A stretch of 64,000 nucleotides of DNA from an uncultured Eubacteriales bacterium (GCA_964521195.1 CAZFRE010000001.1:334317-398316); one strand, 5' to 3'; counted from the stretch's first letter, positions 4,891 through 31,487 are shown. Program-made: numbers and translations. The notes: generated by a model from the sequence alone, not told the origin.

Positions 4891-7662
4891 ATGATGTCCG
4901 CTCGCATACGAGTGTCGGCCGCACTGTCCGCTGCGGGGCTCGTGTGCGCGCTCGTGTGGGGGGCGAGCCCGGCATTCGCTGCGACCGCCGAGGACGCAGC
5001 CTCCGAGTTCGTCATCGGCACGGTCGTCTCGGCACAGCCACGATTGGTCGCCGAGACCGGCGTGATCGTCACCGATGTCGAGGTCGTGCAGGCCGCACCG
5101 GGCGGGGGAGTCGAGGTCGCCGGGTTCGCCATGCGCGGCGGCGAGATCGGCGACATGGGCATGTGGTCCGAGCAGTACGTGGCCCTCTCACCGGGAGATC
5201 CGGTGCTCGCGCCGGTCGAGGAGATCGGCGGCGCGGTCACCGCTGTCGGCGCGCCCGTCTCGGGGGTGGCCGCTGTCAGCGCGGGCTACATCTGGGAAGG
5301 TCTGAGCTGGCCCGACAGTTCGCTCCCCGTGCACTACCGGTTCAATCCCTCAGGCATGCCGACGGGGTCTGAGTCCGCCGTCATCGCGAGCGCCGACGCA
5401 TGGGAGAACGATGCTGGCTCGTACATGGACTACACGTACGACGGCACCACGTCGACGTCAGCCGGTGCCGCGGACGGGGTGAACGTCGTCGGCACGGGCG
5501 CTCTCGGCGCCGGGGGCCCACTGGCGGTGTGCCAGTACTGGTACAACCCTTCGACGATGTCGATCGTGCAGTTCGACATACAGTTCAACGTCTCGAACTA
5601 CAGCTTCGCGACCAACGGAAGCGGGTCGGCGTACGACGTTCGCGCCGTAGGCACGCACGAGTTCGGGCACACGCTGTGCCTCTCGGACATGTACGAGGCC
5701 GAGAACGCCAACCAGGTGATGTATGGCTACGTGACCGCGGGCGACCTGTCCAGCCGTACCCTCAAGTGGGGCGACATCGCGGGAATCCGCGCCATCTACC
5801 CCAGTCCCGCCGGCTCGCTCTCGGGCACCGTCACCGATGCCGTGGGCACCGGGCTCTCGGGTGCGTCAGTCTCGGTACCAGGCAGCCCGGCGGTCCTGAC
5901 GGGCGCGAGCGGGACGTACGCGATCTCCGGCATCGAGCCCGGGGCCTACGACGTCACGTACTCCAAGCCCGGCTACATCAGCCGGACCCTGAGCGTCACC
6001 ATCGCCGATGACGGGAACACGGTGAGCAACGTGGCGCTGTCCGCTCCGCCGGCAACCACGGCAAGCGTGTCGCCGTCGACGGCGCTGAGCTCGTGGATCG
6101 CCACGTCGGCGACGGTGAGCCTGTCCGCGTCGGCGAGTACCGGGACGATCGCGTGGACGCACTACGCCGTGAACGGCGGTGCCGAGCAGGCCTACGCGAC
6201 GCCGTTCGTCATCTCAGGCGAGGGCACCACGACGATCGGGTACCGCTCGCAGGACTCGCACGGCAACCTCGAGACCTCGAAGACCGCCGCGGTCCGCATC
6301 GATCTGTCCGCGCCCGTGACGACGCTCGTGCGCCCCGGAGCCACCTATGCCGCAGGCGCGGGCGGCTGCTTGAGCCTGGTCGCAAGCGATGCGCTGTCAG
6401 GTGTCGCGACCACTTCGTGGCGACTCGGTGCGAGCGGCGGCTTCAAGTCGGGAACGGCGGTTCCGGTGCCGGCGGCAGTCGGCACCTACACGATCCAGTA
6501 CTTCTCCGTGGATGCGGTCGGCAATGCCGAGGCCGTGCAGTCGTCGCAGTTCGCGGTCATCAGCGACGCCCTGCCCCCGGTCACCACGAGCGACGCGAAG
6601 GCGCAGTATGACACGTCCGCCAGGGTGTCGCTCACGGCCACCGACCTCGTCTCGGGCGTGGCGAGCACCCATTGGCTGCTCGACGGTATCGCCGGCACCG
6701 GCACGACCATCGACGTCGCCGCCTACGGAAACCACTCGTTGAGTTTCTGGTCGATCGACGGCGTCGGCAACGCGGAGACGCCGAGTGCTGTCAGCTTCTT
6801 CGTGCGCGATGTGACCGCTCCGACGGTCAGCGCGTTCGTCGACGCTCTGAACACCGAGAACGCGACGATTGAATTGCGCGCTTCGGACGAGGCGCATGGG
6901 AGCGGCGTCGCATCGATCTCCTATCGGCTCGACGACGAGGCCACCCAGACCGTCGCGGGTGCCTACACCACCGTGACTCCGTCGCAGGGCGTGACGCACA
7001 CCGTCACGTACTGGGCGAACGACGTCGCGGGCAACGCCAGCTCGCCCGGTTCTGTCACGCGCAAGGTGATCGGGCCGACGCGTTTCCTGCTCGATACGCT
7101 GCCGTCCCCCGTGGCGCCGGGTGCATTCGTGACACTATCGGCTCGCGTCGAGACGTTCTCGGCGGTCGCGCCTGTGGCCGGTGAGAGCGTCATCCTGCAG
7201 GTCAGCAATGGCGGCGTCTGGTCGAAGGCCGTGCCCACGGGAGCCCTGGTAGCCGAGGACGGCTCCTTCACGTTCGAGTTCTCGCCACTGCAAAGCGCCA
7301 CCTACCGGTTCTCGACATCACCGGGCACCGCTCTGCGCTACGGCGTGAGCGACCCGTTCGTCATCGGGGTGCGCGCGCTGGTCACCCGTCCTTCGGCGCC
7401 GAAGTCACCCATGGCGAAGCGCACCTTCTCGGTCTCAGGCCGGGTGACTCCGAAGCTCGCAAGCACGGCTCGGCTGAAGTGGTACCGCGTGAAGAGCACC
7501 GGCAAGAAGTACTACGCCGGCAAGACCGTCTCGCTCTCGTCGACCGGCAAGTGGACGGCCAAGCGCAGCCTGCCGAGGGGGACCTGGGCGGCGCGGGTGG
7601 TCTACACAGACCCGTTCGGCGTTGTGACGACGAGTTCGTACCGGACGTTCAAGGTGAGGTAG
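4891..7662 (+). CDS. secreted metzincin (matrixin/snapalysin-like) protease with CarboxypepD_reg-like domain, about 4-5 Ig-like (OmpL47/CHB_HEX_C-type) repeats and a C-terminal beta-sandwich
   Basis: Signal peptide ...SPAFAATAED. Zinc site HEFGHTLCLSDMY (HExxHxxxxxD). SGTVTD..G..L.GA.V.....TG..G.Y.I.G..PG.Y resembles carboxypeptidase-regulatory/PEGA modules. Repeats carry the signature ...SGVA.T.W.L.G......G.H...Y.S.D..GN.E. Confidence 0.8.
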   Translation: MMSARIRVSAALSAAGLVCALVWGASPAFAATAEDAASEFVIGTVVSAQPRLVAETGVIVTDVEVVQAAPGGGVEVAGFAMRGGEIGDMGMWSEQYVALSPGDPVLAPVEEIGGAVTAVGAPVSGVAAVSAGYIWEGLSWPDSSLPVHYRFNPSGMPTGSESAVIASADAWENDAGSYMDYTYDGTTSTSAGAADGVNVVGTGALGAGGPLAVCQYWYNPSTMSIVQFDIQFNVSNYSFATNGSGSAYDVRAVGTHEFGHTLCLSDMYEAENANQVMYGYVTAGDLSSRTLKWGDIAGIRAIYPSPAGSLSGTVTDAVGTGLSGASVSVPGSPAVLTGASGTYAISGIEPGAYDVTYSKPGYISRTLSVTIADDGNTVSNVALSAPPATTASVSPSTALSSWIATSATVSLSASASTGTIAWTHYAVNGGAEQAYATPFVISGEGTTTIGYRSQDSHGNLETSKTAAVRIDLSAPVTTLVRPGATYAAGAGGCLSLVASDALSGVATTSWRLGASGGFKSGTAVPVPAAVGTYTIQYFSVDAVGNAEAVQSSQFAVISDALPPVTTSDAKAQYDTSARVSLTATDLVSGVASTHWLLDGIAGTGTTIDVAAYGNHSLSFWSIDGVGNAETPSAVSFFVRDVTAPTVSAFVDALNTENATIELRASDEAHGSGVASISYRLDDEATQTVAGAYTTVTPSQGVTHTVTYWANDVAGNASSPGSVTRKVIGPTRFLLDTLPSPVAPGAFVTLSARVETFSAVAPVAGESVILQVSNGGVWSKAVPTGALVAEDGSFTFEFSPLQSATYRFSTSPGTALRYGVSDPFVIGVRALVTRPSAPKSPMAKRTFSVSGRVTPKLASTARLKWYRVKSTGKKYYAGKTVSLSSTGKWTAKRSLPRGTWAARVVYTDPFGVVTTSSYRTFKVR

Positions 7663-7741
7663 CCCCGCACCACCGTGCGGCTCGGCTCGACTTCGGGAAC
7701 AAACGTCTCACGGCCGTCGAGTTCCCGAAAGGTCATACCTC

Positions 7742-8536
7742 ATGATTCGTCGTGCGCTCACGCTGTTCGCCGCCATCGCACTCGTCACGCTTCTGCTCGC
7801 GGGCTGCGGCGCTGAGGACCAGATGTCCGAGCTGACCGCGAACCCGTGGGTCGCCACGCAGATCCAGACGTCGGCCGGGATGGGGCCCACGCTGCAGGGT
7901 TCGTCGCCGGCGGTCTACTTCAATCCTGATGGGACCGTCACCGGTAACGCCACGGTGAACTCGTTCAAGGGGCCCTACACCGTGAACGCGCGAAACATCG
8001 CGATCGGCCCGCTCGTGGTGAGCGACTGGGACGCACCGCAGATGGAGAGCACGCAGGATCAGACCGTGCTCGATGCGCTCAAGTCCGCCGCCAGGTACCA
8101 CATCAAAGACGGTGTGATGCAGCTTTCCGACGCGTCGGGCAACCTGCTGATGAGCTTGACCGTGGCCCAGGAGCCCAAGCTGGTGGGGCCGGTGTGGAAG
8201 TGCACGGCGTGTCTCGACGAGAAGGGCGAGCTCGCCTCGACGATCGGGACGAGCCAGGTGGTCGCCGAGTTCGCTCCCGACGGCGAGCTCAAGGGCTCGA
8301 CAGGCGTGAACCAGTACTCGGCGGCATACACGGTCTCGGGCACGAACATGACTATCGGTCCGGACGTGAGCGTGACGAAGACATCCGGACCGGAGGCGCT
8401 GATGGTGCAGGAGGCGAGATACCTCGCGGCCATCACGCGAACCGCCGGCTACCGCATCGAGGCCTACAGCCTGACCCTGACAGACGCGCAGGGTGTCACG
8501 GTGGCCACCTACGTTCCGCTCGCGCCGAAGCAGTGA
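7742..8536 (+). CDS. lipoprotein with two META (HslJ-like) domains
   Basis: Lipobox LLLAGC. Two repeats of the META pattern (NSFKGPY.V....I.IGP......; GVNQYSAAYTVSGTNMTIGP). Confidence 0.7.
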   Translation: MIRRALTLFAAIALVTLLLAGCGAEDQMSELTANPWVATQIQTSAGMGPTLQGSSPAVYFNPDGTVTGNATVNSFKGPYTVNARNIAIGPLVVSDWDAPQMESTQDQTVLDALKSAARYHIKDGVMQLSDASGNLLMSLTVAQEPKLVGPVWKCTACLDEKGELASTIGTSQVVAEFAPDGELKGSTGVNQYSAAYTVSGTNMTIGPDVSVTKTSGPEALMVQEARYLAAITRTAGYRIEAYSLTLTDAQGVTVATYVPLAPKQ

Positions 8537-8584
8537 TCGCACCGGTGGCGGGTCCGTCGGCTCGCAGTCGCGCGACCGTCACCA

Positions 8585-9529
8585 CTACTCCCCGGCGTTC
8601 CACCCCTCGTCCTGAGCGGCCCAGCGCCCGGGTGACATCCCCACCCAGTCGTACTGGCTGATCCCGATGCTGCCGGCCTTGCGCGCGGCCTTGGTGAACG
8701 CACGGATCTGCGGGGACGACGAGCCGCTCGAGATTCCGCCGATCAGGTGGACCGGCACGTCCGAGCAGCCCGGCTGCGCTCGTAGCAACTGCATACTCGA
8801 GGTCGCGTACGCCCCGGCCGCCTTGGCGGTGTGCGCGTCGAAGGTGTAGTAGGCCATCGGCAGCAGCACGTCGTAGTTCTCAGCCACCTCCGCATAGGGG
8901 AAGACGTCCCAGAAGCCGGTCTGCTTCGCGAGTCCCACGGGCGAAGGGATGATGCCGCCGAGCGGGTACTTGGAGCCCACGTGCTTGCGCAGGGCCTTGG
9001 TGAGGCGCAGCAGATTACGGTTGCGCTTCGCGTACGACTTCACCGCGGTCGATTCGATGTCGAGCGCGAACGAGTCGGCTTTGTCGCCGTCGGGTGTCTC
9101 GAAGTCGATCGCGGCGATGCAGCGGTCGAGGTCGGTGGAGTCGGTCTTGAGGTTGGGCAGGTACCACGTCACCACGTAGATGCCGCGTTCGTGCGCCTCG
9201 GTGATGAACTTCGCGAGTGCATCCGGGTTCGAGATGCCCTCCGGCGACTTCGAGTTGCCGGTCTGGATGTAGAGCGTCGTCACGCCATGCTGCTCGAGAT
9301 CGCGCACGGTCGCCGCGGGATCGCGCCACGCCCGGGCGTCCCAGAGGTCGACCCACGCACCAACGCCCTCGTACGGCTCGATGCCTCGCACCACCCTCGG
9401 CTTCTTCCTCTCGGCTGCCGGTGGCTTCTCGCCGAGCAGCCCGGCCCCGAGCGCGCCGGCCATCGCCAGCATGAGCAGCGCAGCCGCGCCAAGCAGCGGC
9501 CACCGGTATCGGAGAATGAACTGACGCAT
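8585..9529 (-). CDS. membrane-anchored putative glycoside-hydrolase-like TIM-barrel protein (GHL/DUF4015-like)
   Basis: ORF trimmed to ATG at 9529 with a perfect AGGAGG 4 nt upstream. N-terminal TM segment. Alternating beta/alpha pattern with ...TTLYIQTGN..., ...IYVVTWYLP..., ...DSFALDIES... The family call is tentative. Confidence 0.45.
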   Translation of the reverse strand: MRQFILRYRWPLLGAAALLMLAMAGALGAGLLGEKPPAAERKKPRVVRGIEPYEGVGAWVDLWDARAWRDPAATVRDLEQHGVTTLYIQTGNSKSPEGISNPDALAKFITEAHERGIYVVTWYLPNLKTDSTDLDRCIAAIDFETPDGDKADSFALDIESTAVKSYAKRNRNLLRLTKALRKHVGSKYPLGGIIPSPVGLAKQTGFWDVFPYAEVAENYDVLLPMAYYTFDAHTAKAAGAYATSSMQLLRAQPGCSDVPVHLIGGISSGSSSPQIRAFTKAARKAGSIGISQYDWVGMSPGRWAAQDEGWNAGE

Positions 9530-9627
9530 CAGACCTCCTGTCGCAATGAAGGCGATTGTACGCATGCCGAGAAGCCCGGGTGCACGTCCGTAGTAGAATC
9601 GTCGCGCAGCCGTGATGGGAGAGCGCG

Positions 9628-10488
9628 ATGGGATGCACGCGAGGGCACGCACCGGAAGCGCGCAGTGCGCTGCGCGCGCTTGGCGCGGCCGTCGCCGGGT
9701 CTGCGCTGGTCGTCGCGGTGTTTGCGGCGACGCTGATGGCACTTCCCGTGACCGCCTCGGCGTTGACCGCGCCCGCCGCCGAGCCCACCGGCAGTGTCGA
9801 GCCCACCGGCACCACCGAGCCCACCGGCAGTGTCGAGCCGACGACCGTAGTGTCGCAGGTCACCACCCGCTCGATCGGGGTCACCGTTCGCGGGCGGCCG
9901 ATCGTGCTCGAACGGTTCGGGTCGGGTTCGCGGCACATCCTCATCGTAGGGGGCCTCCACGGCGACGAGGCCGGCGGGCTACTCGGCGCGCGGTTCAAGG
10001 CGTACCTGCGGTCGCACCCCTCCGCCATTCCCACGGACACGGTCGTCGACGTCATCGCATACGCGAATCCGGACGGCCGGGCTCTCAAGCGCCGAACGAA
10101 CGCGCGCCGGGTCGATCTCAATCGCAACTTCCCGGCGAGCAACTGGACCCGCAAGCACCCGCGCGGCACCCCATCGCACGGCAAGAAGGCCGCCTCCGAG
10201 CCCGAGACCCGCGCGCTGGTCAGGCTGCTGGCCGACGAGAAGTACCTGCGCGTCATCACCCTGCATTCGCGCGGCGGATTCATCGACCCGGACGGCGCCG
10301 GCAGTCGTGCGCTCGCCAAACGCATGGCGCGCGCCGCTCATATCCGAGTGGTCAACCTGCCCGCGTACAACGGCTCGATGGGCAGCTACGTTCCCGAGAA
10401 GCACCGCATCCCGATCGTGACCTGGGAGTTGTCGAGCCGCACGCTCACCAAGCGCGTGCGCAACGGGCTGCTCGCGGGCCTGCGGTAG
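9628..10488 (+). CDS. M14-family zinc carboxypeptidase / murein peptide amidase-like
   Basis: Signal peptide. ILIVGGLHGDEAGG (HxxE zinc site), NPDG, VDLNRNFP, SEPET..L. Confidence 0.75.
   Translation: MGCTRGHAPEARSALRALGAAVAGSALVVAVFAATLMALPVTASALTAPAAEPTGSVEPTGTTEPTGSVEPTTVVSQVTTRSIGVTVRGRPIVLERFGSGSRHILIVGGLHGDEAGGLLGARFKAYLRSHPSAIPTDTVVDVIAYANPDGRALKRRTNARRVDLNRNFPASNWTRKHPRGTPSHGKKAASEPETRALVRLLADEKYLRVITLHSRGGFIDPDGAGSRALAKRMARAAHIRVVNLPAYNGSMGSYVPEKHRIPIVTWELSSRTLTKRVRNGLLAGLR
9781..9852 (+). repeat. 18-bp in-frame tandem repeat (3.5-4 copies) encoding an EPTG(SV/TT) linker
   Basis: gagcccaccggcagtgtc / gagcccaccggcaccacc / gagcccaccggcagtgtc / gagccgacgaccgtagtg, read directly. It lies inside the M14 peptidase just after the signal peptide. 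Confidence 0.9.
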
Positions 10489-10503
10489 TCGGGAGGCCAG
10501 TGC

Positions 10504-12309
10504 ATGCCAGTGCGCACCATCCGCGTCGACTGCGCCGCCGAGCAGACCGTCTTCGAGGGCTGGGGGACGTCGCTTGCGTGGTGGGCGAACGCGGTGGGAC
10601 GTTGGCCCGCCGAGCAGCGCGCGCCGCTTCTGCGCCGACTCTTCACGCTTGATGCCGGCGGCCTCGGGCTCACGATCGCGCGCTTCAATGCGGGCGGCGG
10701 CGAGCGGCCGGGCACCCAGACGACGATGATGCCGCGTGCGGTCATGGACGGCTACCGGTCGCGGCCGGGCGCGCCGTTCGACGAGACCGCCGACCCTGGT
10801 CAGCGCGCCGTGCTGCGCGAGGCCGCAGCGCTCGCCTCGGCGTCGGGTGACGAGCTCGTGGTGGAGCTGTTCGGCAACTCGCCTCCATGGTGGATGACGC
10901 GCTCGGGCAGCGTGACCGGCGACTCGCTCATCGGCCGAATCCCCGCACCCAATCTCGCTCCCTCGTTCGAGCGCGACTACCTCGCCTACCTTGCCGAGGT
11001 CGCGTCGTTCGTCGAGCGCGACGCCGGCGTACGCGTGGAGTCGATCTCGCCGGTCAACGAACCGACGTCACAGGCGTGGGCGCTCGGCGGGCGGCAGGAG
11101 GGCTGCACGTATTCGCTGCGCGGTATCGACCGGCTGCTCTCGCGCTACGCCGAGGAGCCCGCGCTCGCTGGCGGCCACGTGGTCGCGGGTACCGAGGAGT
11201 GGGGGCTGCACGAGGCGGTGCGTACGTTCGACGCACTCGGCTCCGTCGCTCGCGGCGTCCTCGGGCGGCTCAACACGCACACGTACCGCGGCGCTTCGCG
11301 CTCGGCGGTTCGGGCTCGCGCGGTGCGTGCCGGTCTCTCTCTGTGGCTGTCGGAGTTCGGCGAGGGCGGCCCTTGCGGCTACGAACTCGCGCTCGCCATC
11401 GTGCGCGACCTGCGGGAGCTCGCACCGAGCGCGTGGGTGCTCTGGCAAGCCGTCTCGCCCGACGACTGGGGACTCTATCGCCTCACGCACGGCGGCTCGC
11501 GCGCCGAGGTCGCACCCAAGTTCGAGGTCTTCTCGCGGTTCACGCGCTCGATCCGCCCGGGCATGCGCCTGCTGGGCACCGACGACCCGCATTCGGTCGC
11601 CGCGCGCGGCGGCGGGCGGCTTGCCGCGGTCCTCCTCGGCAGCCTCACCGCCGAGGAGGACGTGCACCTCGACTTTGGCGCTCCTGCGGCCGGTGCAGGC
11701 GTACCCGCCGTGGTCACGGTCGCATCCGCGCTCTGCGGTGGGCTGCCGGAGCGTTTCGAGGTGCACGCCGGCGACGGGACCGTGCGGTTCTCGTTACCGC
11801 GGGGAGCCATCGCGTCGGTGGAGCTCGCCGCCGCCGACCCGTCCGCCGCCGAGCAGGGCTATCGCGGCTGCGGCACGTGGCGGCTCGTGCACGGGTCGGG
11901 GCAGCAGCTCGGTCTCGCGGTCGCGGGCGATGCCGAGTTGCGAGCAGGCGTGCGCGCGATCGGTGTCGCTCCGGACGATCGTGCCGCCGTGCAGCGCTGG
12001 CGTGCCGAACCATGTGGCGGTGGCGACGTGCGATGGGTGTGCGAGGCCTCCGGCTGCCAGCTCGACGTGGCGTACGCATCGCGTCGCCACGGGGCGCCGG
12101 TAGTGCAGTGGCGTGCCCGACTCGCCGAGAAGACCCCGCTGCATTGCCGCTTCGCCGTGCGCGAGGTCGGCGACGGCGCCTTCGAGCTGATCGCGCGCCA
12201 CAGCGGCCTCGCGCTCGCGCTGGACGGTGCCGGTAGAGCGGTGACGCAGCGGCCCGGTGACGCGGCCACGCGGTGGCGTCTCGTTCGCGCGACCGGGGCG
12301 CGATTGTAG
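10504..12309 (+). CDS. glycoside hydrolase family 30-like enzyme with C-terminal ricin-B lectin domain
   Basis: N-terminal Q.FEGWGTSLAWWAN pattern typical of GH30/O-glycosyl hydrolases. C-terminal region has QxW-like repeats (VQRW, VVQW, TRW). GGAGG lies upstream of the ATG. No signal peptide is visible. Confidence 0.65.
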   Translation: MPVRTIRVDCAAEQTVFEGWGTSLAWWANAVGRWPAEQRAPLLRRLFTLDAGGLGLTIARFNAGGGERPGTQTTMMPRAVMDGYRSRPGAPFDETADPGQRAVLREAAALASASGDELVVELFGNSPPWWMTRSGSVTGDSLIGRIPAPNLAPSFERDYLAYLAEVASFVERDAGVRVESISPVNEPTSQAWALGGRQEGCTYSLRGIDRLLSRYAEEPALAGGHVVAGTEEWGLHEAVRTFDALGSVARGVLGRLNTHTYRGASRSAVRARAVRAGLSLWLSEFGEGGPCGYELALAIVRDLRELAPSAWVLWQAVSPDDWGLYRLTHGGSRAEVAPKFEVFSRFTRSIRPGMRLLGTDDPHSVAARGGGRLAAVLLGSLTAEEDVHLDFGAPAAGAGVPAVVTVASALCGGLPERFEVHAGDGTVRFSLPRGAIASVELAAADPSAAEQGYRGCGTWRLVHGSGQQLGLAVAGDAELRAGVRAIGVAPDDRAAVQRWRAEPCGGGDVRWVCEASGCQLDVAYASRRHGAPVVQWRARLAEKTPLHCRFAVREVGDGAFELIARHSGLALALDGAGRAVTQRPGDAATRWRLVRATGARL

Positions 12310-12326
12310 GAGAATGACGCGAGTCG

Positions 12327-13799
12327 GTGCTGCGAAGGGGAGGTTCGTTGGCTGGAGCTGAGTGGCAGGCGGTCGCGCTGATCGTCGTCGACATCGCGAT
12401 CGTCATCTACTGGATCATCGTGTCGGTGCTCATCATCTCGCAGGACCGAGACCCCAACGCCACGCTCGCGTGGCTGCTCATCCTGTTCGCAGTGCCGTTC
12501 TTGGGGCTCGTCATCTACTTCCTGTTCGGCCGCAACTGGGCCCACAACATCCAGAACTCGCCGGCGACACGCCGGCTGCACGACGAGATCGACCGCTTCA
12601 TGCCCACGGTGTACCAGCCGTTCGCCGAGGCCTCGCGTGAGTTCCAGTCCGAGGCCTCGCCACAGGTCTTGCGCATCGCCAATCTCGGCGGTGTGGCGCA
12701 AGGTGCACCCGTACTGCCGGTGCGCACGTTCGAGCTGTTCGGATCGGGGGAGGAGTACTTCGATGTGCTGCTCGCCGATCTTGCCTCGGCGAAGCGGTTC
12801 GTCCACATGGCGTACTTCATCTGGGAGGCCGACGAGCTCACGGCTCGGATCACGGAGGTGCTGCTCGACCGCCTCGCGGCCGGTGTCGAGGTGCGGATCG
12901 CCAACGACGTGTACGGAAGCCTTCGCTACTCCAAAGCCGAGATGCGGGCGATGAGCCGCGCCGGCGCGCACATCGGGTTCGACCGCAGCCAACTCGCACG
13001 CGTGAACTATCGCAACCACCGCAAGATCACCGTGGTCGACGGGGAGATCGGGCACACGGGCGGATTCAACGTCGGCCAGGAGTACATCGACGGTGGCAAG
13101 CGGTTCCCGGCGTGGCGCGACACCGGCGTGCGCATCACGGGCCCGGCGGTCGCCGAACTCGAGAAGCTCTTCGGCATGCGGTGGTTTCGCACGACGGGCC
13201 AGAGCCTGTTCAGGCAGGAGTATTACCCCGACCCGTCGCTTGCGCACGGCGACGTGATGGTGCAGTCCGTGCACCAGGGCTACGACGAGGCGTGGGATCC
13301 GATCACGCGCGGCTACCAGCTGGCGATCTCGGGCGCGCAGGAGCGCATCATGATCCAGTCGCCCTACTTCATCCCTGATGCGACCACCCTCGACGTGCTC
13401 ATCAACGCGGCCGCGGGTGGCGTGCGTGTCGACTTCATGACGACGAGTTGGCTCGACAAGAAGCTGCCGTGGTACGCCGCCGAGTCCTACTTCGAGCCCC
13501 TGCTCGTGGCCGGCGCACGCGTGTGGCAGTGGCAAGACGGGTTCTTCCACGCCAAGTCGCTCACCGTCGACGGTGAGATGACCGCGGCCGGCACGATGAA
13601 CACCGACCTGCGCAGCTTCCGTATCAACAAGGAGAACATGGTATGGGCGTTCGACCGCGACGCCGCGGCGCGGGCCACCGCCATGTTCGAGGCCGATCTC
13701 GAGCGGTGCCGGGAGCTGACGCTCGATGAGGTACGCGAGTGGTCGCGGTTCCGCCGCTTCCGCAACTCGACGGCGCGGCTGCTCTCGAACCTGATGTAG
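12327..13799 (+). CDS. cls: cardiolipin synthase
   Basis: Two N-terminal TM helices plus two PLD HKD motifs: HRKITVVDGEIGHTGGFNVG and HAKSLTVDGEMTAAGTMN. Confidence 0.9.
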   Translation: MLRRGGSLAGAEWQAVALIVVDIAIVIYWIIVSVLIISQDRDPNATLAWLLILFAVPFLGLVIYFLFGRNWAHNIQNSPATRRLHDEIDRFMPTVYQPFAEASREFQSEASPQVLRIANLGGVAQGAPVLPVRTFELFGSGEEYFDVLLADLASAKRFVHMAYFIWEADELTARITEVLLDRLAAGVEVRIANDVYGSLRYSKAEMRAMSRAGAHIGFDRSQLARVNYRNHRKITVVDGEIGHTGGFNVGQEYIDGGKRFPAWRDTGVRITGPAVAELEKLFGMRWFRTTGQSLFRQEYYPDPSLAHGDVMVQSVHQGYDEAWDPITRGYQLAISGAQERIMIQSPYFIPDATTLDVLINAAAGGVRVDFMTTSWLDKKLPWYAAESYFEPLLVAGARVWQWQDGFFHAKSLTVDGEMTAAGTMNTDLRSFRINKENMVWAFDRDAAARATAMFEADLERCRELTLDEVREWSRFRRFRNSTARLLSNLM

Positions 13800-13918
13800 C
13801 GGCTGCGGTTCACCGCATCTCAGCGGCGCCTTCTCATCCGTGAGAGGCGCGCCACGCCTCCACACAATGCCCATTAATGGTCCATAAGAAGTTGGCGTGC
13901 TACTTGCCATACTCGTGA

Positions 13919-15772
13919 GTGTCGGGGCCTGCCTCCCGGCGGATTGGACCAGCAGTGAGCCTCAGGACCAGCAGTCACGCCACAACCCGCGGCGCCGCGG
14001 CAGCCTTCGTGCTGCTCGCGGCCGTTGCGTATGGCGCATCTGCGGTCACGGCAGCCCGCGCCGACAGCCCCCACCTCAGCGCATCGACCGACACCTCCAG
14101 CTGTGCGGCTTGCCACTGGAGCCATGCGGCCACGCACCCCACACTCACGCGCAGTACCGACGCCTCCGACGCCGTCACGCCGACGTGCCTGTCGTGTCAC
14201 AGCGGTGTGGATGATGAGATCTCGAACGTCACGAGTGGCACGGTCGACTCGTTCTCGCTGCCATCCGGGCATTCGATAGATCCCGACTCCGGACTCGACG
14301 CGCATATCGCCGGCTGCGAGACGTGCCACGACATCCACGGGTCCTCGGAAGAGACGCGACGCACTCCTGCGCGGACGATCAACGGGGTCTCGGTCTCCTC
14401 GGCGGACAAGCAGACGTGCGTGGCCTGCCACGCGTCATCTGAAGACTGGTTCGGTGCAGGCTACCCCGCAACCGACAGCCCGACTCGCGACGCGACCGGC
14501 TACCCCGTGGCCGGCACATGGCCCGGTCCGAGCACGTACGAGTCCCAGACCAACGCACACCGTCTGATCCCCGAATCGACACGCACGGTCGGCGTGAGCG
14601 AGCCGATCATGCGCGAGGAGGGCTCCTGCCTCTACTGCCACGCCGCTCACGGCGCAGCCAACGCCTACGACGGCCTCGTGACCACGTACACGGTTCCGAG
14701 TACCGCCACGCTCGAGGCGGACCGCACGGATGGTGACTACGCGGCCGTGTGCTTCGAGTGCCACGGCGGCTCCACGCCGGCGGGCTTCGATGACCGGCCC
14801 GTCGATATCAAGCAGTTCGCGACGGTATCCGGCGCAGGCGGCCACTCGATCGTCACGAGCGGTGGGGCACTACCGGTCGGCGCGCAGCTGCCGTGCTTCG
14901 AGTGCCACAACCCGCACGGCTCGACGCGTGGCAATGCGGCCAACATCTCCGATGAACTCGGCGGCTCCCTGGCGACCACGAGCGCTGCCGGCGTCCGTGC
15001 GTTCTGCTTCACCTGCCACACCACGAGCGACACGGTGGCCGGGTGGAGCAGCACCGACGAGACGTACACCCCGGTGGTGTGGAGCGACGAGGTCGTGGGA
15101 TTGCCGCGTGAGGGTGCACTGCTGAACCTGCCGGACACGGCGGGGCACAGCCAGGAAGACACCGCGTCGTGCTACGAGTGCCACGGTGACGACTACAACG
15201 AGGATGGCAACAACGTTCACAACCCGGCCGACCCGCACGCCGGCCGGTTCGCCATCGCGGCGCCGCTCGGCGAGAGCATGCTGACGACCCCGACAGTCGA
15301 GGCGACTTCGAGTGTCGACGCATCCGCATCGCTGGATGCCAGCGCGAGCCTCGTGGCGACCGGCAGCATCGTGGCGACCGGCACCGTCGTCGTGCCCGAT
15401 GCCGGCGTGCCGAGCGAACCGTCATCCGGCGTAGCGGCGGCCGACCTCATCGCGCCACTGACCGCCTCCGACGCGGTCGCCACCTACAGCGTCACTGCGA
15501 CGATCACGTTGACTGCGGCCGATGACGCCGGCGGGAGCGGGGTCGCCGAGACGTTCTGGTCGCTCGACGGCGGTGAGCTCTGCACCGGCACGGTCGTCGC
15601 GACGTCGACGCCGGGCACCCACACGCTCACGTTCTGGTCGGTGGATGTGGCGGGCAACGCCGAGCCGGCCAACACCGTCGACTTCACGGTCGAAGACGCC
15701 CTGACGTACTCGGCGATGCCTGCGCTGATCGCCCGGCGCGGCTGGGTGATCGGCGAGCGCTCGGGCAGCTAG
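13919..15772 (+). CDS. exported multihaem c-type cytochrome (9 CxxCH) with C-terminal Ig-like surface domain
   Basis: Signal peptide ...AAVAYGASAVTAARA. CxxCH motifs: CAACH, CLSCH, CETCH, CVACH, CLYCH, CFECH, CFECH, CFTCH, CYECH; several appear as CxxCHxxHG. The C-terminus has ...DDAGGSGVAETFWSLDGG...GTHTLTFWSVDVAGNAE. The GTG start is uncertain. Confidence 0.75.
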   Translation: MSGPASRRIGPAVSLRTSSHATTRGAAAAFVLLAAVAYGASAVTAARADSPHLSASTDTSSCAACHWSHAATHPTLTRSTDASDAVTPTCLSCHSGVDDEISNVTSGTVDSFSLPSGHSIDPDSGLDAHIAGCETCHDIHGSSEETRRTPARTINGVSVSSADKQTCVACHASSEDWFGAGYPATDSPTRDATGYPVAGTWPGPSTYESQTNAHRLIPESTRTVGVSEPIMREEGSCLYCHAAHGAANAYDGLVTTYTVPSTATLEADRTDGDYAAVCFECHGGSTPAGFDDRPVDIKQFATVSGAGGHSIVTSGGALPVGAQLPCFECHNPHGSTRGNAANISDELGGSLATTSAAGVRAFCFTCHTTSDTVAGWSSTDETYTPVVWSDEVVGLPREGALLNLPDTAGHSQEDTASCYECHGDDYNEDGNNVHNPADPHAGRFAIAAPLGESMLTTPTVEATSSVDASASLDASASLVATGSIVATGTVVVPDAGVPSEPSSGVAAADLIAPLTASDAVATYSVTATITLTAADDAGGSGVAETFWSLDGGELCTGTVVATSTPGTHTLTFWSVDVAGNAEPANTVDFTVEDALTYSAMPALIARRGWVIGERSGS

Positions 15773-17269: not shown

Positions 17270-17424
17270 CGGAGCTCCTTCGGCTGCGCGAAGCGGATAT
17301 GTGGGTGTTGTTCCCGAGCAGGTCGTTCGCGTAGCGATTGTAGTCGTCGAGTCTTGGGAACGAACGACACGGTTCGTTACGAATTTCACGATGTCAGGCG
17401 CGGCGGACTCAGCGGAGGCTCGAA

Positions 17425-17993
17425 TGAAGAAGGGGTTGCGCGCGACGTTGTGGGTGGTGGCCGGGCTGGCGGTGGTCTTCAGCCTGGGTGCCTACAACAA
17501 GTCCATCGGGTCGGGCGAGCGGGGGAGTTTCGTCATGAACTACCCGGCGAGCGGGACCGCAGCAGGCGGCCCCTCGCCTCGGGCGCTGACGGGGCAAGTC
17601 GTCGTCTCGCTTGATGATGCGGGCGCGATCAAGCGCGCGCTCCAGCCGGATGTGATCGAGGTCGCTTCGCATGTCGTGTCCAATGTCGGCGACGTCCCGC
17701 GGCGCATCCGCTTCGAGACGGCAGGGTTCCCCTCCGGGCTCGAGTTGCACTCGCGCGATCGCGCCTGGAACCCCGTGACTCATGAGATCGAACGCGACCT
17801 GCCTCCCGGCTCCTCCGTCGACTTCGGCCTTCTCGTGCGGCTGCCGAGCCCATTGCCCGATCGGGCGGTGGCTGCCAGCGGCACCATTCGGATCGTCGAC
17901 GCGCGATCGGGAGAGCGACTGAGCTCGCTCCCGGTCCAGTTCCGGCGCGAGGGATACCCGGTGCAGGCAGGTGACTGCTGTGCACCTCAGTGA
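17425..17993 (+). CDS. membrane-anchored beta-sandwich protein ending in a CC motif (unknown function)
   Basis: ATG at 17425 with GGAGG 6 nt upstream. N-terminal TM segment LWVVAGLAVVFSL. DUF1573-like beat (HVVSNVGDVPRRIRFE...). The C-terminus is ...AGDCCAPQ. Confidence 0.55.
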
Positions 17994-18840
17994 TGGGGTC
18001 ACCCGTAACCGCCTGCGGCGTCTGGTGGGATTCGCCCTCGGTCTCGTGCTCTTCTACGCCCCGTTCGCGCTGCTGGTCCGGGGCTTCGGGATACTCTTTC
18101 CGAGCACGGCGGCAGGGACTTCGATCTCGGACGTGCACGGAGCGTGCCTTCGGATGCCGCTGGGCTGGCTGGCCCAGCCCTGGATGTGGGGAACACTGGC
18201 GAACAGCCCCGCCTCATGGCTGCCGATCGCCGTCTTGCCGCTGGCAGCCATGGCGGCAGGTCCGCTGTTCTGCGGCTGGTTGTGCCCTGCAGGCGCGCTG
18301 CCCGAGTATCTCGGCCGAGCGGTTCCGGACCGTTTCAAGTTCGACTTCAAAGGTACCGTCGACATCGTCCCGCTGCGGTACGGGTTCCTCGCAGGCATCA
18401 TGCTGGTGCCGTTTGTGGCATCGAGCATCTGCTGCTCGTTCTGCAACTTCAATCAGATGCAGTACCTGGTGGGCGGCGTGTTCGGTGATCTGTCCGGGTT
18501 CGCATACTTCAGTTCTATGGGAGTGCTCGCGGCCGCCGTATGGATCGTCCCCCTCGGCCTGTTCACTCGGGGCGGGCGTGGTTGGTGCCTGTTCCTGTGC
18601 CCGGCCGGCACCGTTCAGGGCCTGGCGTCGAAGCTCACGGCACGGCTCCCGTGGGCTGTGCGCGTGCGGCGTGACCACGGCGCTTGCACGAGTTGCGGCC
18701 AATGCGAGGATGTCTGTCCGATGAGGGCCGCGGATGCGGCTGCGGATTCTGCGCCCGACATCGACGGTCACCTGTGCATCCAATGCCAGGACTGCGTGGC
18801 CACCTGCCCTGCGGGGGCTCTGTCGTACCGGAGGCCCTGA
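17971..18840 (+). CDS. NapH/MauN-type membrane polyferredoxin (4Fe-4S binding protein)
   Basis: Two membrane CxxCP-type motifs (CGWLCPAG, CLFLCPAG) and two ferredoxin motifs (CTSCGQCEDVCP, CIQCQDCVATCP). Overlaps the upstream gene by 23 nt. Confidence 0.8.
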   Translation: MTAVHLSDGVTRNRLRRLVGFALGLVLFYAPFALLVRGFGILFPSTAAGTSISDVHGACLRMPLGWLAQPWMWGTLANSPASWLPIAVLPLAAMAAGPLFCGWLCPAGALPEYLGRAVPDRFKFDFKGTVDIVPLRYGFLAGIMLVPFVASSICCSFCNFNQMQYLVGGVFGDLSGFAYFSSMGVLAAAVWIVPLGLFTRGGRGWCLFLCPAGTVQGLASKLTARLPWAVRVRRDHGACTSCGQCEDVCPMRAADAAADSAPDIDGHLCIQCQDCVATCPAGALSYRRP

Positions 18841-19196: not shown

Positions 19197-19889
19197 GTGC
19201 GGGAGGCCGACGTGAGCGACTTCGGACCACGACGGGACTACGGGCGTATCCGCGAGCGCCCGTATCGGCATGGCAGCCACGATCGCGAGAAGCGCCTGCA
19301 GTTCACCATCGGAGTCGGCGCAGCCATCATGCTGGTGCTCGGCGCGGGAATCGGGTTCGCGCTCGGCAGGGCCACGGCGCCGACACCCGATCCCACGGAG
19401 CCTGCGACCATCGTCGAGGAGACGACGCTGCCCGCCGGCGTCATCGAGGACGTCCCCACCGAGAGCGTCGACGCGAGCTTCACCGACGACGTCACGCTGT
19501 CCGAGGAGCCCACGGAAGACGTCAAGCCGCCCACGAGGCCCAAGCAACTCGCGCCCTCCAACGGCGCGGTGATCGATGCCACGAATGTGTACCTGAAGTG
19601 GTCGAAGTCGAAGGACGATTCCGGATCGGTGACGTACTCCTTCGAGATCCAGGACCGGCTCTCGAACGGCACGTACGGCCGCACGCAGGTCATCAAGAAG
19701 CTCAAGAAGCGCCAGTACTACGCACGCGTGCTCTCAGTGAAGCGCCGTTGGCGCGTGTGGGCAGTGGACGAGGCCGGCAACAAGAGCAAGAAGAGCCCGT
19801 GGCACTACTACATCAAGAAGTACACGCCGCCGGCGACCCCGAAGAAGTCGACGAACACGTCGGACAGCAAGAGCGACGAGACGACGTAG
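19197..19889 (+). CDS. membrane-anchored protein with FN3/Ig-like ectodomain and Lys-rich tail
   Basis: TM segment IGVGAAIMLVLGAGIGFALG. Acidic/Pro linker, then ...LKWSKSKDDSGSVTYSFEI...WRVWAVDEAGNKS. Confidence 0.5.
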   Translation: MREADVSDFGPRRDYGRIRERPYRHGSHDREKRLQFTIGVGAAIMLVLGAGIGFALGRATAPTPDPTEPATIVEETTLPAGVIEDVPTESVDASFTDDVTLSEEPTEDVKPPTRPKQLAPSNGAVIDATNVYLKWSKSKDDSGSVTYSFEIQDRLSNGTYGRTQVIKKLKKRQYYARVLSVKRRWRVWAVDEAGNKSKKSPWHYYIKKYTPPATPKKSTNTSDSKSDETT

Positions 19890-21385: not shown

Positions 21386-22366
21386 CTAGCGGACGCGCAC
21401 CGAGACGATCTGCGAAACGCTCGGGGCGAGTTCGGCGGTGCCGGCGAAGCGTGCCTGGAACTTGTACGTGCCCTTGGACGACGCGTTGTAGCGATACTTC
21501 CAGCTGGCGCTGTTCGACTTCTCGGAGTCCTTCGTCTCGACCTTCTTGACGAGGACCCACGTGCTGGAGCCGGGCTTCATGACGTAGATCGCGACCTTGA
21601 GGTCGTCCTCATTCGCACTCAGCTTGCCGGACAGCGAGACGCTCCTGCGCGACTTGTGATCGTCGTCGTCGCCGTCACGTTCGTACGAGGCGCGGAGAGT
21701 CACGGTGGTGGACGTCAAGCCGCTCGGGTCGACCGGCACCGGGGCGGTGATCGTGAAGCTCGCGGTCTTGTGGGTCTCGGCGTTACCGGCCACGTCGACC
21801 GACCAGAACTCGATGGTGTGGGAGCCGACGGTGGCGACGTTGATCGACGTGCCCGTCATCTGCGCACCGCCGTTGAGCTTGTAGTAGGTGTTGGCGACAC
21901 CGGAGCCCGCGTCGGTGGCGGAGAGCTTGATCGCCGCCGAGGAGACGTAGGTCGCCTTGGCATCCGACGTCGTCACCGGGGCGGTGGCGTCGACGGGCAC
22001 CGGGGCGGTGGCGTTCAGGATGGCCGTACCGAGCCCATCAGACGTTCCCGGCCCGGTGACGGCGAAGATCGTGTACACGTTGCCGGTGGTCACGGTGAAC
22101 TGGCCAGAGGCGCCGGCGACAGTGGTCACGCGGGTCGTACCATTGAACACGGAGACGTAGTCGGCGCCGGGGGCGCTGAAGCTGTACGTCGCGGAGGTGC
22201 CCGATGCCGAGAGAAGCGTGGTGGTGATGGTCGCGCCTGCACCGTCGTGACAGTTGCTGCATTGCGAGGTCTTGCTTGGGGTCGCCGAAGCGGTGGTGGC
22301 GAACACAGCCAGCATGCCAACCGCGATCAAGGCGACGGCCACACCGAGTCTTCCTTTGCGAATCAC
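21386..22366 (-). CDS. secreted protein: single CxxCH + Ig-like (OmpL47-type) domains + shared C-terminal beta-sandwich
   Basis: GTG at 22366 with GGAGG upstream. Signal peptide ...AVFATTASA. CSNCH lies directly after the signal peptide. ...SATDAGSGVANTYYKLNGG...GSHTIEFWSVDVAGNAE. The C-terminus has KGTYKFQARFAGT. Confidence 0.65.
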   Translation of the reverse strand: MIRKGRLGVAVALIAVGMLAVFATTASATPSKTSQCSNCHDGAGATITTTLLSASGTSATYSFSAPGADYVSVFNGTTRVTTVAGASGQFTVTTGNVYTIFAVTGPGTSDGLGTAILNATAPVPVDATAPVTTSDAKATYVSSAAIKLSATDAGSGVANTYYKLNGGAQMTGTSINVATVGSHTIEFWSVDVAGNAETHKTASFTITAPVPVDPSGLTSTTVTLRASYERDGDDDDHKSRRSVSLSGKLSANEDDLKVAIYVMKPGSSTWVLVKKVETKDSEKSNSASWKYRYNASSKGTYKFQARFAGTAELAPSVSQIVSVRVR

Positions 22367-22721
22367 GAAACACCTCCGAGAGTTGCGGGATGCGGCGGAT
22401 CCAGCGTCCGCCTTGCGAACCGTTTCGGCGGTTAGAAAGCGCATCTAGAGCCAATTCGTGCTAGCTAAGAAGACTCTAAGGGTGGCCTAATGTCCGAGAC
22501 GGCCCAGAGGGTCGAGGGCGACGCACCCGACGGTCAGTCGCTTCACCGCTCTGAGCAGGCGTGACGTGGCTGAGAGCGTGGTTGGCTCGCGCAGCCGACG
22601 CCGCGGAGCGGTCAGACCGCTCTCATCCACCGCTCTCATCTGCGGCTTCCTCTACTGTGCGCTTCGTCACAGTGTGGGCGCCGACGGGACCGCACGTCGC
22701 CAGATCGCGGCCGAGGTGACG

Positions 22722-27469: not shown

Positions 27470-28165
27470 ATGCCCGACAAGCCCACACGAGCGACCGCCA
27501 TCGCCGCGATCGGCTGCATGGTCACGCTGAGCGTCATCGTCTTCGTGCTCGTCATGCGGTTGCCCGACGTGGTCGGGCTGGGCTCGCGCGTGAAGCTGCC
27601 GATCTTCCACGGGGCGTCCACCTGGGTGGACCTGATGCTCTTCGTGCTGATGGGAATCGCGGCCATCATCTACGTCGCCGGGCGAAGCGACCGTGTCTAC
27701 GCGTGGGAGGTCGGGCTGCGGGCGGTCGCCATGCCGCTGTGGGCCCTGAACAGCGTCCTCGGCTTGGTCGCAGCGCTCAACACGTGGGACTTCACGGCAT
27801 CCAAGCAGTCCCCGCTCGTCGTCGCAAGCCAGGACCCGCGACTGACGGCGCAGCTCGTGCTGTTGCTGGGCATCGGCATCGTGCTGCTGCTCGACTGGCT
27901 CGTGCATGAGAAGCGCGTGCACAAGGCCCTCACAGACCTCGCGTTCGTGGTCGTCGCGGCCTACCTGCTGTCCGACATCTTCTTGGACCCGGCGAAGCGG
28001 GCGCTTCATCCGGACAGTCCGGTGCTGAACTCGGGGTGGGAGATCAAGGGCCCGTTCTTCGGGATCGTCACCGCGTGGCTGGGTGCGATGCTGATCGGTG
28101 CGTGGCTCGTGAGCCGCTACGTCGGCCCCGAGACGTCGCTGCCGGACGCGCAGGAAGAGGCGTAA
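27470..28165 (+). CDS. 6-TM membrane protein, divergent CcmC/CcsA-like (haem-handling) candidate
   Basis: Predicted topology and landmarks parallel CcmC as I recall it. His in loop 1 (LPIFHGASTW). Degenerate Trp-rich loop ending in DPRLTAQLVLLL (compare WGxxWxWDxRLTSELVLL). His in loop 3 (ALHPDS). Confidence 0.4.
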   Translation: MPDKPTRATAIAAIGCMVTLSVIVFVLVMRLPDVVGLGSRVKLPIFHGASTWVDLMLFVLMGIAAIIYVAGRSDRVYAWEVGLRAVAMPLWALNSVLGLVAALNTWDFTASKQSPLVVASQDPRLTAQLVLLLGIGIVLLLDWLVHEKRVHKALTDLAFVVVAAYLLSDIFLDPAKRALHPDSPVLNSGWEIKGPFFGIVTAWLGAMLIGAWLVSRYVGPETSLPDAQEEA

Positions 28166-31295: not shown

Positions 31296-31487
31296 ATGAG
31301 CCACACCGACGACACCGCCCCCGAACTGCAGCTCCAGCCCGTCCTCTCCGATGAGGAGCGCCAGCCCTGTGAGATCTGGACGCGCGTGATGGGCTACCAC
31401 CGCCCGGTCGCGTCGTTCAACGCCGGCAAGAAGGGCGAATTCGCCGAGCGCACCTGCTTCACCGAGGACCGTGCCGAGCTCAACTAG
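31296..31487 (+). CDS. stand-alone NrdD glycyl-radical domain (63 aa)
   Basis: CEIWTRVMGYHRPVASFNAGKKGEFAER matches the class III RNR C-terminal glycyl-radical consensus (..R..GY.RPV...N.GK..EF..R). It is in a different frame from nrdD. Confidence 0.65.
   Translation: MSHTDDTAPELQLQPVLSDEERQPCEIWTRVMGYHRPVASFNAGKKGEFAERTCFTEDRAELN

Follow-up and report, generated by a model that had tools for sequence, protein, structure and literature searches.

How could a bacterium with a single membrane pass electrons through its cell wall? To our knowledge, an account of how electrons cross thick monoderm peptidoglycan exists for very few proteins, in essence those of Thermincola, OcwA among them. The question is raised here by a stretch of 64,000 nucleotides from an uncultured Eubacteriales bacterium (GCA_964521195.1, CAZFRE010000001.1:334317-398316; the window), in which an open reading frame (ORF) at 13919-15772 contains nine CxxCH haem motifs. 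A preliminary description, made from the sequence of the window, had read this ORF as a Sec-exported nonahaem cytochrome of a Gram-positive-type, high-GC lineage, fused to an Ig-like domain and acting in extracellular electron transfer. We found that the observation itself was sound. The interpretation held for a secreted doubled-CXXCH nonahaem protein, for the Ig-like domain and for the lineage, and was unsupported or overstated for the supposed rarity of such proteins, for a protease-type scaffold and for a CcmC-like gene. Based on the results below, the product of the gene is probably a nonahaem c-type cytochrome that works outside the cytoplasm of a monoderm Coriobacteriia-type bacterium and serves electron transfer only, and extracellular electron transfer remains the best reading of its role.

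13919..15772, + strand: whole gene, 617 amino acids (aa), GTG start; predicted secreted nonahaem c-type cytochrome with a C-terminal Ig-like domain

The window has a G+C content of 68% and contains many spurious long ORFs, and the cytochrome ORF is not among them. The G+C fractions at its first, second and third codon positions are 0.62, 0.61 and 0.85, and the frame plot is concordant over the full length. Because the third-position signal spans the entire gene, we conclude that 13919-15772 is a genuine coding frame. An in-frame GTG at 13955 may be an alternative start.

The nine motifs (CAACH, CLSCH, CETCH, CVACH, CLYCH, CFECH, CFECH, CFTCH and CYECH) begin at residues 62, 90, 133, 167, 237, 278, 326, 363 and 418 and hold 18 of the 19 cysteines of the protein. 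In 20,000 shuffles of the protein's own residues, one CxxCH was the most that appeared. The other 53 called proteins of the window have two CxxCH in total, and no second ORF with two or more was found there. Four of the motifs have the form CxxCHxxH, and three of these four are CxxCHxxHG. Paired_CXXCH_1 (PF09699), a model that the preliminary description had proposed to search with, matched four stretches with 65.7 bits against a cut-off of 20.6 (best stretch, residues 320-369), and TIGR01905 (NCBIfam) matched with 52.4 bits against 25.2. Both are above curated thresholds, as expected from the 'doubled CXXCH' look that had been noted before. The translation of the ORF, the shuffles and the Pfam and NCBIfam matches likewise agree with the Sec-type signal and nine motifs first reported. 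By motif count and export signal, the protein is predicted to be a multihaem c-type cytochrome with haem covalently attached at these sites.

We aligned the protein with 46 homologues and then with 112 (alignments of 47 and 113 sequences). The 18 motif cysteines, the nine motif histidines and ten further histidines (H52, H69, H118, H140, H214, H244, H309, H333, H410 and H434) are invariant or nearly so, and all nine CxxCH are invariant in the 47-sequence alignment. There is no conserved methionine or lysine in the core in the alignment, and the CxxCK motif is also absent. The histidines divide the core into four apparent di-haem units and a ninth site, as follows.

14063..15253, + strand: nonahaem core module, aa 49-445, with nine CxxCH and ten conserved histidines outside the motifs
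14102..14272, + strand: di-haem unit 1, C62xxCH66xxH69 ... C90xxCH94 ... SGH118; a Paired_CXXCH_1 stretch
14315..14560, + strand: di-haem unit 2, C133xxCH137xxH140G ... C167xxCH171 ... NAH214; Cytochrome_C7 and c3_2 matches
14627..14845, + strand: di-haem unit 3, C237xxCH241xxH244G ... C278xxCH282 ... GGH309; partial MtrC-MtrF_II-IV match, residues 228-335
14894..15148, + strand: di-haem unit 4, C326xxCH330xxH333G ... C363xxCH367 ... AGH410; the best Paired_CXXCH_1 stretch
15170..15220, + strand: ninth haem site, C418xxCH422 ... NVH434NP; invariant in all alignments

A count of distal histidines, also proposed in the preliminary description, thus gives ten conserved histidines outside the motifs for nine haems. 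Ten spare histidines are available and nine distal ligands are needed; therefore, the simplest reading is that all nine are bis-His, low-spin, electron-transfer haems. In a full-length AlphaFold2 (AF2) model made with 47 sequences, the predicted local distance difference test (pLDDT) score was about 40 for the core and 95-98 for the Ig-like domain. A core-only model made with 113 sequences, which does not include the haems, had a pLDDT of 88.3 and a predicted template modelling (pTM) score of 0.86. In this confident model there is no helix longer than 10 residues and no three-helix bundle.

We found that the protein belongs to a family with few named members. A first database search returned 95 homologues, the best of them 66% identical, and the exact protein sequence had no database record. 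The few named homologues are called 'cytochrome c3 family protein' and come from metagenome-assembled genomes (MAGs) of Actinomycetes, Actinobacteria or Coriobacteriia. Scanning one genome per species gave 58 loci (numbered below with an L), nearly all in uncultured Coriobacteriia, Actinomycetota and Anaerosomatales MAGs, together with Coriobacteriaceae sp. EMTCatB1. HMMER, run exhaustively over 1.84 billion cluster representatives, gave 294 relatives at E<=1e-3. Because there were only 294 among so many, the nonahaem family is small and lineage-restricted. These Coriobacteriia and Actinomycetota loci, and the Gram-positive wall of cultured members (PMC9686372), support the lineage assigned to the window in the preliminary description.

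Haem counts in the family have modes at 9 and at 17-19, with exactly nine in 51 of 132 hits. A module of ~400 residues is found alone, at the N-terminus of 17-19-haem proteins, or inside giant proteins. The window protein matches 10-11 stretches of the giants P0133 (4,629 aa, 61 CxxCH) and P0144 (4,501 aa, 69 CxxCH), and in both of these Ig-like and FN3 domains precede the haem region. Single ORFs with 45-74 CxxCH occur in related Coriobacteriia and Anaerosomatales loci. Elsewhere in the family the tails vary: there can be none, one or several Ig-like repeats (six in P0002 by a strict motif, 13 in one nonahaem hit), low-complexity sequence or extra haem domains, and FN3 domains are found at the N-terminus too. 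Within this lineage-restricted, modular cytochrome family, the window protein is a minimal, stand-alone, single-module member.

The loci with giant cytochromes are L048:9194-21181, L025:5990-17530 and L023:580-6585 and 6749-14887. One giant ORF has 74 CxxCH in at least 3,996 aa (it ends at the edge of its locus); others have 45 and 50 + 33. As haem proteins these giants are among the very large ones, and they appear to be undescribed.

Could the nine haems belong to an enzyme? In that case the protein would be a reductase or detoxifier of nitrite, hydroxylamine, sulfite, tetrathionate or a metal chelate, with one catalytic haem, of the NrfA, MccA, OTR or OcwA type. OcwA (TherJR_2595 of Thermincola potens) is the best-studied nonahaem protein of a Gram-positive surface; it is NrfA-like and reduces nitrite and hydroxylamine despite having sufficient histidines. 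Its haem core resembles those of NrfA, c554 and MccA; it has a C-terminal three-helix bundle of long helices, one His/Met haem, and two five-coordinate haems with HH motifs, even though there are enough histidines for bis-His ligation. Both OcwA and the window protein have nine CxxCH, a size of about 60 kDa, Sec export and a monoderm host, and both are proposed to act in extracellular electron transfer. In contrast, the defining features of OcwA were not seen here. There is no OcwA match by sequence or by Foldseek, there are no long helices, and there are ten spare histidines for nine haems; membership of an OcwA/NrfA-type family was rejected on these grounds. That is, OcwA is a functional analogue at most and not a homologue.

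Other observations that bear on an enzyme point in both directions. Profiles of nitrite reductases were matched (1qdb, E 0.002; 1fs7 and 3sxq, E >=0.1), but each match covers one CxxCH neighbourhood only. The gene stands alone, with no wire partners visible in the window, as might be expected of an enzyme. In contrast, the recurrence of the module in larger and giant multihaem proteins suits wires, no CxxCK and no conserved lysine, methionine or cysteine is offered as a distal candidate in the core, the confident core model has neither a three-helix bundle nor long helices, and Foldseek gave no match to NrfA, HAO, MccA or OcwA structures. We therefore consider a catalytic role unlikely and an electron-transfer role the better reading of the nine haems.

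We compared the protein to other known multihaem cytochromes. A single-sequence search of the PDB with the cytochrome found nothing significant. A profile search gave weak, local matches to 6r2q chain A (E 2e-5) and to OmcE (7tfs, E 4.5e-5; 9yuq, E 1e-4), all restricted to doubled-CXXCH segments and, for OmcE, to about 40 residues. OmcE, like the window protein, has a loop-rich fold. The PDB table labels chain A of 6r2q 'Cystathionine beta-synthase'; we take this 333-aa decahaem protein of the MtrCAB entry to be MtrA. The same profile search gave no match at E<=1 to OcwA, MtrC/OmcA or OmcS. Whole-protein models of NCBIfam were far under their cut-offs: 32.7 bits against 192 for DmsE (TIGR03508), 22-37 against 325 for GSU2203 and 16 against 640 for the nine-haem cytochrome c. 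The OmcA/MtrC model TIGR03507 (cut-off 209) did not hit the window protein and gave its relatives at most 32 bits. PF22113 (MtrC-MtrF_II-IV) formally passes, with 43 bits against 30, and covers profile positions 75-168 of 176 only.

Membership of the OmcA/MtrC family was rejected, since TIGR03507 was not matched and neither the PDB profile search nor Foldseek gave a hit. Membership of the MtrA/DmsE family was rejected on the score of 32.7 bits against 192, the nine haems and the lack of a porin gene. The doubled-CXXCH cytochromes, including MtrA/DmsE, are kin at the level of domains: four CxxCHxxH ... CxxCH units are found here as well, and a role as a linear wire is presumed for both. In contrast to MtrA/DmsE, the window protein has nine haems and not ten, has no porin partner, comes from a monoderm, carries an extra Ig-like domain and had no Foldseek match to 6r2q.

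The likeness to OmcE raises another possibility, that the protein is the subunit of a polymerising filament, a Gram-positive 'nanowire'. Subunits would stack head to tail, S-P-H52 or another surplus histidine would ligate a haem of the neighbour as in OmcS and OmcE, and the Ig-like domain would decorate the filament. The profile matches to 7tfs and 9yuq are in keeping with this, as are one surplus conserved histidine and the position of conserved H52, in S-P-H52, four residues from the predicted mature N-terminus. The module also joins end to end in the giant proteins, and the relative Parvivirga hydrogeniphila, an obligate Fe(III) reducer, forms pili-like appendages only on ferrihydrite (PMC9686372). 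However, the OmcE similarity is limited to the short doubled-CXXCH segment, and OmcE has four haems in about 220 aa compared to nine in about 400 aa here. All haems of OmcE are His/His, with one histidine contributed by the neighbouring subunit, whereas the histidine count makes a monomer of the window protein self-sufficient, so that a ligand from another subunit is not needed. OmcE lies in a gene cluster with beta-barrel and beta-propeller proteins, and its homologues are reported from five Gram-negative phyla only; near the gene and in the orthologous loci examined, no neighbour encoding a beta-barrel or beta-propeller protein was found. There is also no filament linked to this nonahaem family and no sign of oligomerisation. 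We regard a filament of this kind as quite improbable and prefer a self-contained, electron-transferring cytochrome. A broader proposal is also unlikely. In it Coriobacteriia would stack the nonahaem unit as a wire module, whose fold would differ from that of every solved cytochrome, into covalent cables of 9 to >60 haems in one polypeptide; the Ig-tagged form would dock or polymerise in the wall, giving a Gram-positive nanowire that arose independently of OmcS, OmcE and OmcZ.

We asked what accompanies the family in its relatives. The homologues with 17-19 haems lie in a conserved cluster that encodes an NrfH/NapC-like 10-11-haem cytochrome, an MtrA/DmsE-like 14-haem cytochrome (166-177 bits against the cut-off of 192), the 19-haem homologue, whose N-terminus is the nonahaem module, ResB and CcsA; the cluster in L028 also has Rex. 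ResB and CcsA, confirmed with Pfam, adjoin the homologous cytochromes in L026, L028 and L044. The closest genomic orthologue of the window protein is in L032 (64% identity), and the same MAG holds L044. Because L044, with ResB and CcsA, shares its MAG with the closest orthologue, the lineage has System II maturation.

The reconstructed cluster matches the key cluster of Parvivirga, which has MtrA and OmcH homologues, a quinol-oxidising multihaem cytochrome, cytochrome c biogenesis proteins and Rex (PMC9686372). In cultured Anaerosomatales (OPB41, class Coriobacteriia) the wall is Gram-positive, the G+C content is 66-68% and 17-18 multihaem cytochromes are encoded; respiratory quinones were undetected in them (PMC9686372). 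Their multihaem proteins and those of EMTCatB1 are true homologues of the window protein, with 40% (MCK8114672) and 41% (the 19-haem protein of EMTCatB1, L026) identity in the core, and share its lineage, G+C range and Gram-positive wall. The Anaerosoma tenue homologue (P0125, MCK8114672.1) is similar in its N-terminal part; it heads the cluster 'MCK8114672-75', discussed as homologues of MtrA, OmcH and CFE_2239 and as candidates for Fe(III) reduction (PMC9686372). In contrast to the window protein, which is single-module, Ig-like and stand-alone, these homologues have 17-19 haems in 1,060-1,170 aa and are clustered with cytochromes, ResB/CcsA and Rex.

Coriobacteriaceae sp. EMTCatB1 has 18 c-type cytochromes, some of them strongly induced on a working biocathode (PMC7943316). 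Its homologue in L026 could not be mapped to the induced 1d0898 or 1c0642, as the supplement gives neither coordinates nor sequences. The claim that such proteins are rare or not described in Gram-positives thus did not stand: cultured Anaerosomatales encode 17-18 multihaem cytochromes, and multihaem proteins of EMTCatB1 are up on the biocathode. Envelope multihaem cytochromes of Gram-positives are already known, and larger members of this family have been flagged, uncharacterised, as candidates for Fe(III) reduction. In the literature, we found no paper that describes the nonahaem module, the Ig-like fusion or the giant forms.

Outside the core, the protein has an export signal, a linker, an Ig-like domain and a short conserved end.

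13919..14062, + strand: predicted Sec-type signal peptide, aa 1-48, with a basic n-region and the hydrophobic core AAAAFVLLAAVAYGASAV
15254..15445, + strand: low-complexity linker rich in Ala/Ser/Thr/Val/Asp, aa 446-509, pLDDT <50
15446..15703, + strand: Ig-like beta-sandwich, aa about 510-595, OmpL47-type/Big_13-like, with a PKD/FN3-like fold
15704..15769, + strand: conserved C-terminal peptide, aa 596-617, ...AMPALIARRGWVIGERSGS; short helix at 600-611 in the model

Cleavage is predicted after A46-R47-A48, which would leave a mature N-terminus of D-S-P-H52 with D49 first. The AxA-then-(S/T)PH layout recurs at the end of the signal across the homologues, and the full-length AF2 model has a helix at residues 18-42, within the signal region. 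The linker (A14 S11 V9 T7 in the 66 residues counted, aa 445-510) varies in length among homologues. At the other end of the protein, the peptide that follows the Ig-like domain has the pattern ...A-A-R-R/L-G-x-W-I/V-x-x-x-G-T/S in the clade of the window protein, with akin tails in P0001, P0004-6, P0038, P0054-55 and P0079. A function in sorting or docking is conceivable for it.

The Ig-like domain matched NF047446 (NCBIfam, OmpL47-type) with 58.6 bits against 40; PF19077 gave 12.3 bits only, under its threshold. Foldseek matched the domain to 3pe9, 4l9d, 4tn9 and 4jrw (E 7e-5 to 3e-4), and it superposes on the PKD/FN3-like modules of ColG, PrtV and CbhA with target-normalised TM-scores of 0.56-0.78. 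Thus, it has the fold of the PKD/FN3-like, Big_13 and OmpL47 modules of secreted hydrolases, joined here to a redox protein. By the strict motif, the repeat is present in 23 of the 51 nonahaem family members.

The preliminary description had linked this repeat to giant surface proteases in the window, and the same repeat is indeed found there: each metalloprotease (4891-7662 and 36070-39165) has two or three copies, and an ORF at 21386-22444 (- strand) has one. The domain of the cytochrome is 37-54% identical to these window repeats and 55-70% identical to the domains of orthologous cytochromes. Because it is closer to the latter than to the repeats of the proteases beside it, the fusion is old and vertically inherited rather than borrowed locally, and on these identities recent domain shuffling from the window proteases was rejected. 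The 'protease-type display scaffold' is better described as a generic PKD/FN3-like extracellular module, and it is not an anchor.

The two large secreted metalloproteases (both + strand) have a near-parallel C-terminal architecture. One is a matrixin-like M10 protease with a CarboxypepD_reg domain and the other an HExxH protease with a PPC domain; both end in three Ig-like repeats and a conserved tail of ~250 aa ending ...LPRG(T/S)WA(A/V)RVVYTDP... This architecture suggests a paralogous display or attachment cassette. Separately, some members of the cytochrome family end in an LP(S/E)ET-like or WPGE(T/P) motif, followed by a Gly/Ala/Thr stretch and then RRRR. Sortase anchoring was considered and rejected: the window protein has no such motif, and the LP(S/E)ET-like tails of its paralogues match no NCBIfam sorting-signal model.

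We also looked at the genes around the cytochrome. It stands alone, with a PLD-type cardiolipin synthase upstream on the same strand and a convergent glycerol kinase downstream. The features that bear on its possible partners and on the lifestyle of the organism are these.

17424..18840, + strand: possible partner pair, a small signal-anchored ORF (17424-17993) overlapping a polyferredoxin (17971-18840)
19197..19889, + strand: 230-aa single-pass membrane protein with a Pro/Thr/Glu-rich linker and an FN3-like ectodomain; no significant family match
27470-28165, + strand: conserved multi-pass membrane protein, 65-73% identical in L002, L004, L005 and L021
29152-31251, + strand: NrdD (585 bits)
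31471-32232, + strand: radical-SAM protein, presumably the NrdD activase

The polyferredoxin agrees with the NapH-type operon that had been placed at 17425. It is NapH/MauN-like, with two CX3CP motifs, 4Fe-4S motifs and Fer4_5/Fer4 matches; TIGR02163 gave 74 bits against a cut-off of 213, and the small ORF has no family match. L005 has a homologous pair (L005:333-1836; 69% and 75% identity) immediately upstream of its orthologous cytochrome gene. Because the remaining orthologues lack the pair in their vicinity (2 of about 12 loci carry the link), its connection to the cytochrome is weak. Given that respiratory quinones went undetected in cultured Anaerosomatales, the pair could provide a quinone-independent electron input across the membrane. 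The 230-aa protein is the sole recurrent immediate neighbour across the orthologous loci: its homologues are directly downstream of the cytochrome in L006 (11616-12317) and L032 (11727-12425) and nearby in L002 and L015. The 230-aa protein may partner the cytochrome or tether it to the membrane. A conserved operon partner was otherwise rejected, as the flanks in the orthologous loci are unrelated (RecQ, Fur, CbiM, HisRS and two-component regulators).

The membrane protein at 27470-28165 had been called a divergent CcmC-like gene, and we could not support this. Neither Pfam nor NCBIfam gave a match, a WWD motif is lacking, and no similarity to the CcsA ORFs of the loci was seen at 1e-8. The gene lies upstream of nrdD and is oriented divergently from an AsnC-type regulator. 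NrdD and the radical-SAM protein indicate that the organism lives anaerobically, which would suit a Coriobacteriia-type bacterium that respires iron or electrodes. An unusual 227-aa fusion of FeThRed_B (the ferredoxin-thioredoxin-reductase catalytic domain) with a Rieske [2Fe-2S] domain is encoded at 41144-41827 (+ strand).

A solitary gene of this kind might be silent or decaying, a remnant of a larger cytochrome cluster whose product is no longer matured or expressed. The 64 kb around it contain no maturation genes or other cytochromes, and a scan for sigma-70-like promoters and terminators around the gene found none, but the consensus is uncalibrated for this phylum. Four orthologues also look fragmented, split into two or three overlapping ORFs (L015:9995-11165, L021:9878-11999, L032:10438-11028 and L045:9983-11597). 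However, all four belong to one MAG series, with names beginning 'MFD', and we suspect that frameshift errors of high-GC assemblies, not gene decay, are behind the splits. In addition, the reading frame in the window is intact with native third-position G+C, every Cys and His ligand is kept in orthologues down to 48% identity, and the chromosomal position is kept: L015 has the order cls-cytochrome-glpK, and downstream genes are common to L002, L004, L005, L006 and L021. We consider it very unlikely that the gene is a relic.

How might such a protein work? The apoprotein would be exported by Sec, with the signal peptide cut after A-R-A48. System II (ResB/CcsA), presumably encoded elsewhere in the genome as judged from the genes of relatives, would then attach nine haems. 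The ten conserved histidines would supply a second ligand to each haem, giving low-spin bis-His haems and no open catalytic site. The four di-haem units and the ninth haem could form one continuous chain, that is, a segment of wire. A wire segment is suggested because larger homologues extend the module with more haem-rich sequence to 17-19 haems and to 61-69 CxxCH, and because its sequence resembles only the wire cytochromes MtrA and OmcE. The flexible Ala/Ser/Thr-rich linker and the PKD/FN3-like Ig domain may fix the position or the spacing of the cytochrome, within the peptidoglycan or outside it. Electrons would be relayed between membrane-associated donors and Fe(III) minerals, humics, electrodes or partner cells, possibly also in the reverse direction. 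The analysis shows the conserved motifs, the signal for export, the fold of the Ig-like domain, where the family occurs, the reuse of the module in larger proteins and the gene clusters of relatives; in this scheme we infer the geometry of the chain, the attachment and ligation of the haems, the localisation, the partners and the direction of electron flow.

Several points weigh against this proposal. Foldseek found no match in the PDB for the core model, which may reflect low sensitivity for loop-rich cytochromes. The histidine count permits bis-His ligation of all haems and does not prove it, and OcwA is a precedent for caution. As the preliminary description had noted for the adjacent genes, canonical Ccm or ResBC genes are missing; across the 64-kb window we found no Ccm, ResB or CcsA, no other cytochrome, no membrane quinol dehydrogenase cytochrome and no WWD motif. 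We also found no signal that would anchor the protein. There is no lipobox cysteine, the first cysteine being C62, already part of haem motif 1, and the end of the protein, ...ALIARRGWVIGERSGS, has neither an LPXTG motif nor a hydrophobic or transmembrane segment. It is possible that the cytochrome is simply released from the cell.

Our findings overturn nothing, and they narrow where to look. The nonahaem family offers a second solution, unrelated to OcwA and in another phylum, to wiring a monoderm wall. Its nine-haem unit is compact and modular, and ligation by histidine pairs throughout is probable from the conserved residues. The 617-aa stand-alone form is the smallest and a tractable handle on the module and on the giant cytochromes. 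Relatives include an obligate Fe(III) reducer and a bacterium that dominates biocathodes. Because of these relatives, the family is a candidate determinant of iron cycling in the subsurface and of the way electrons are taken up in electromethanogenesis.

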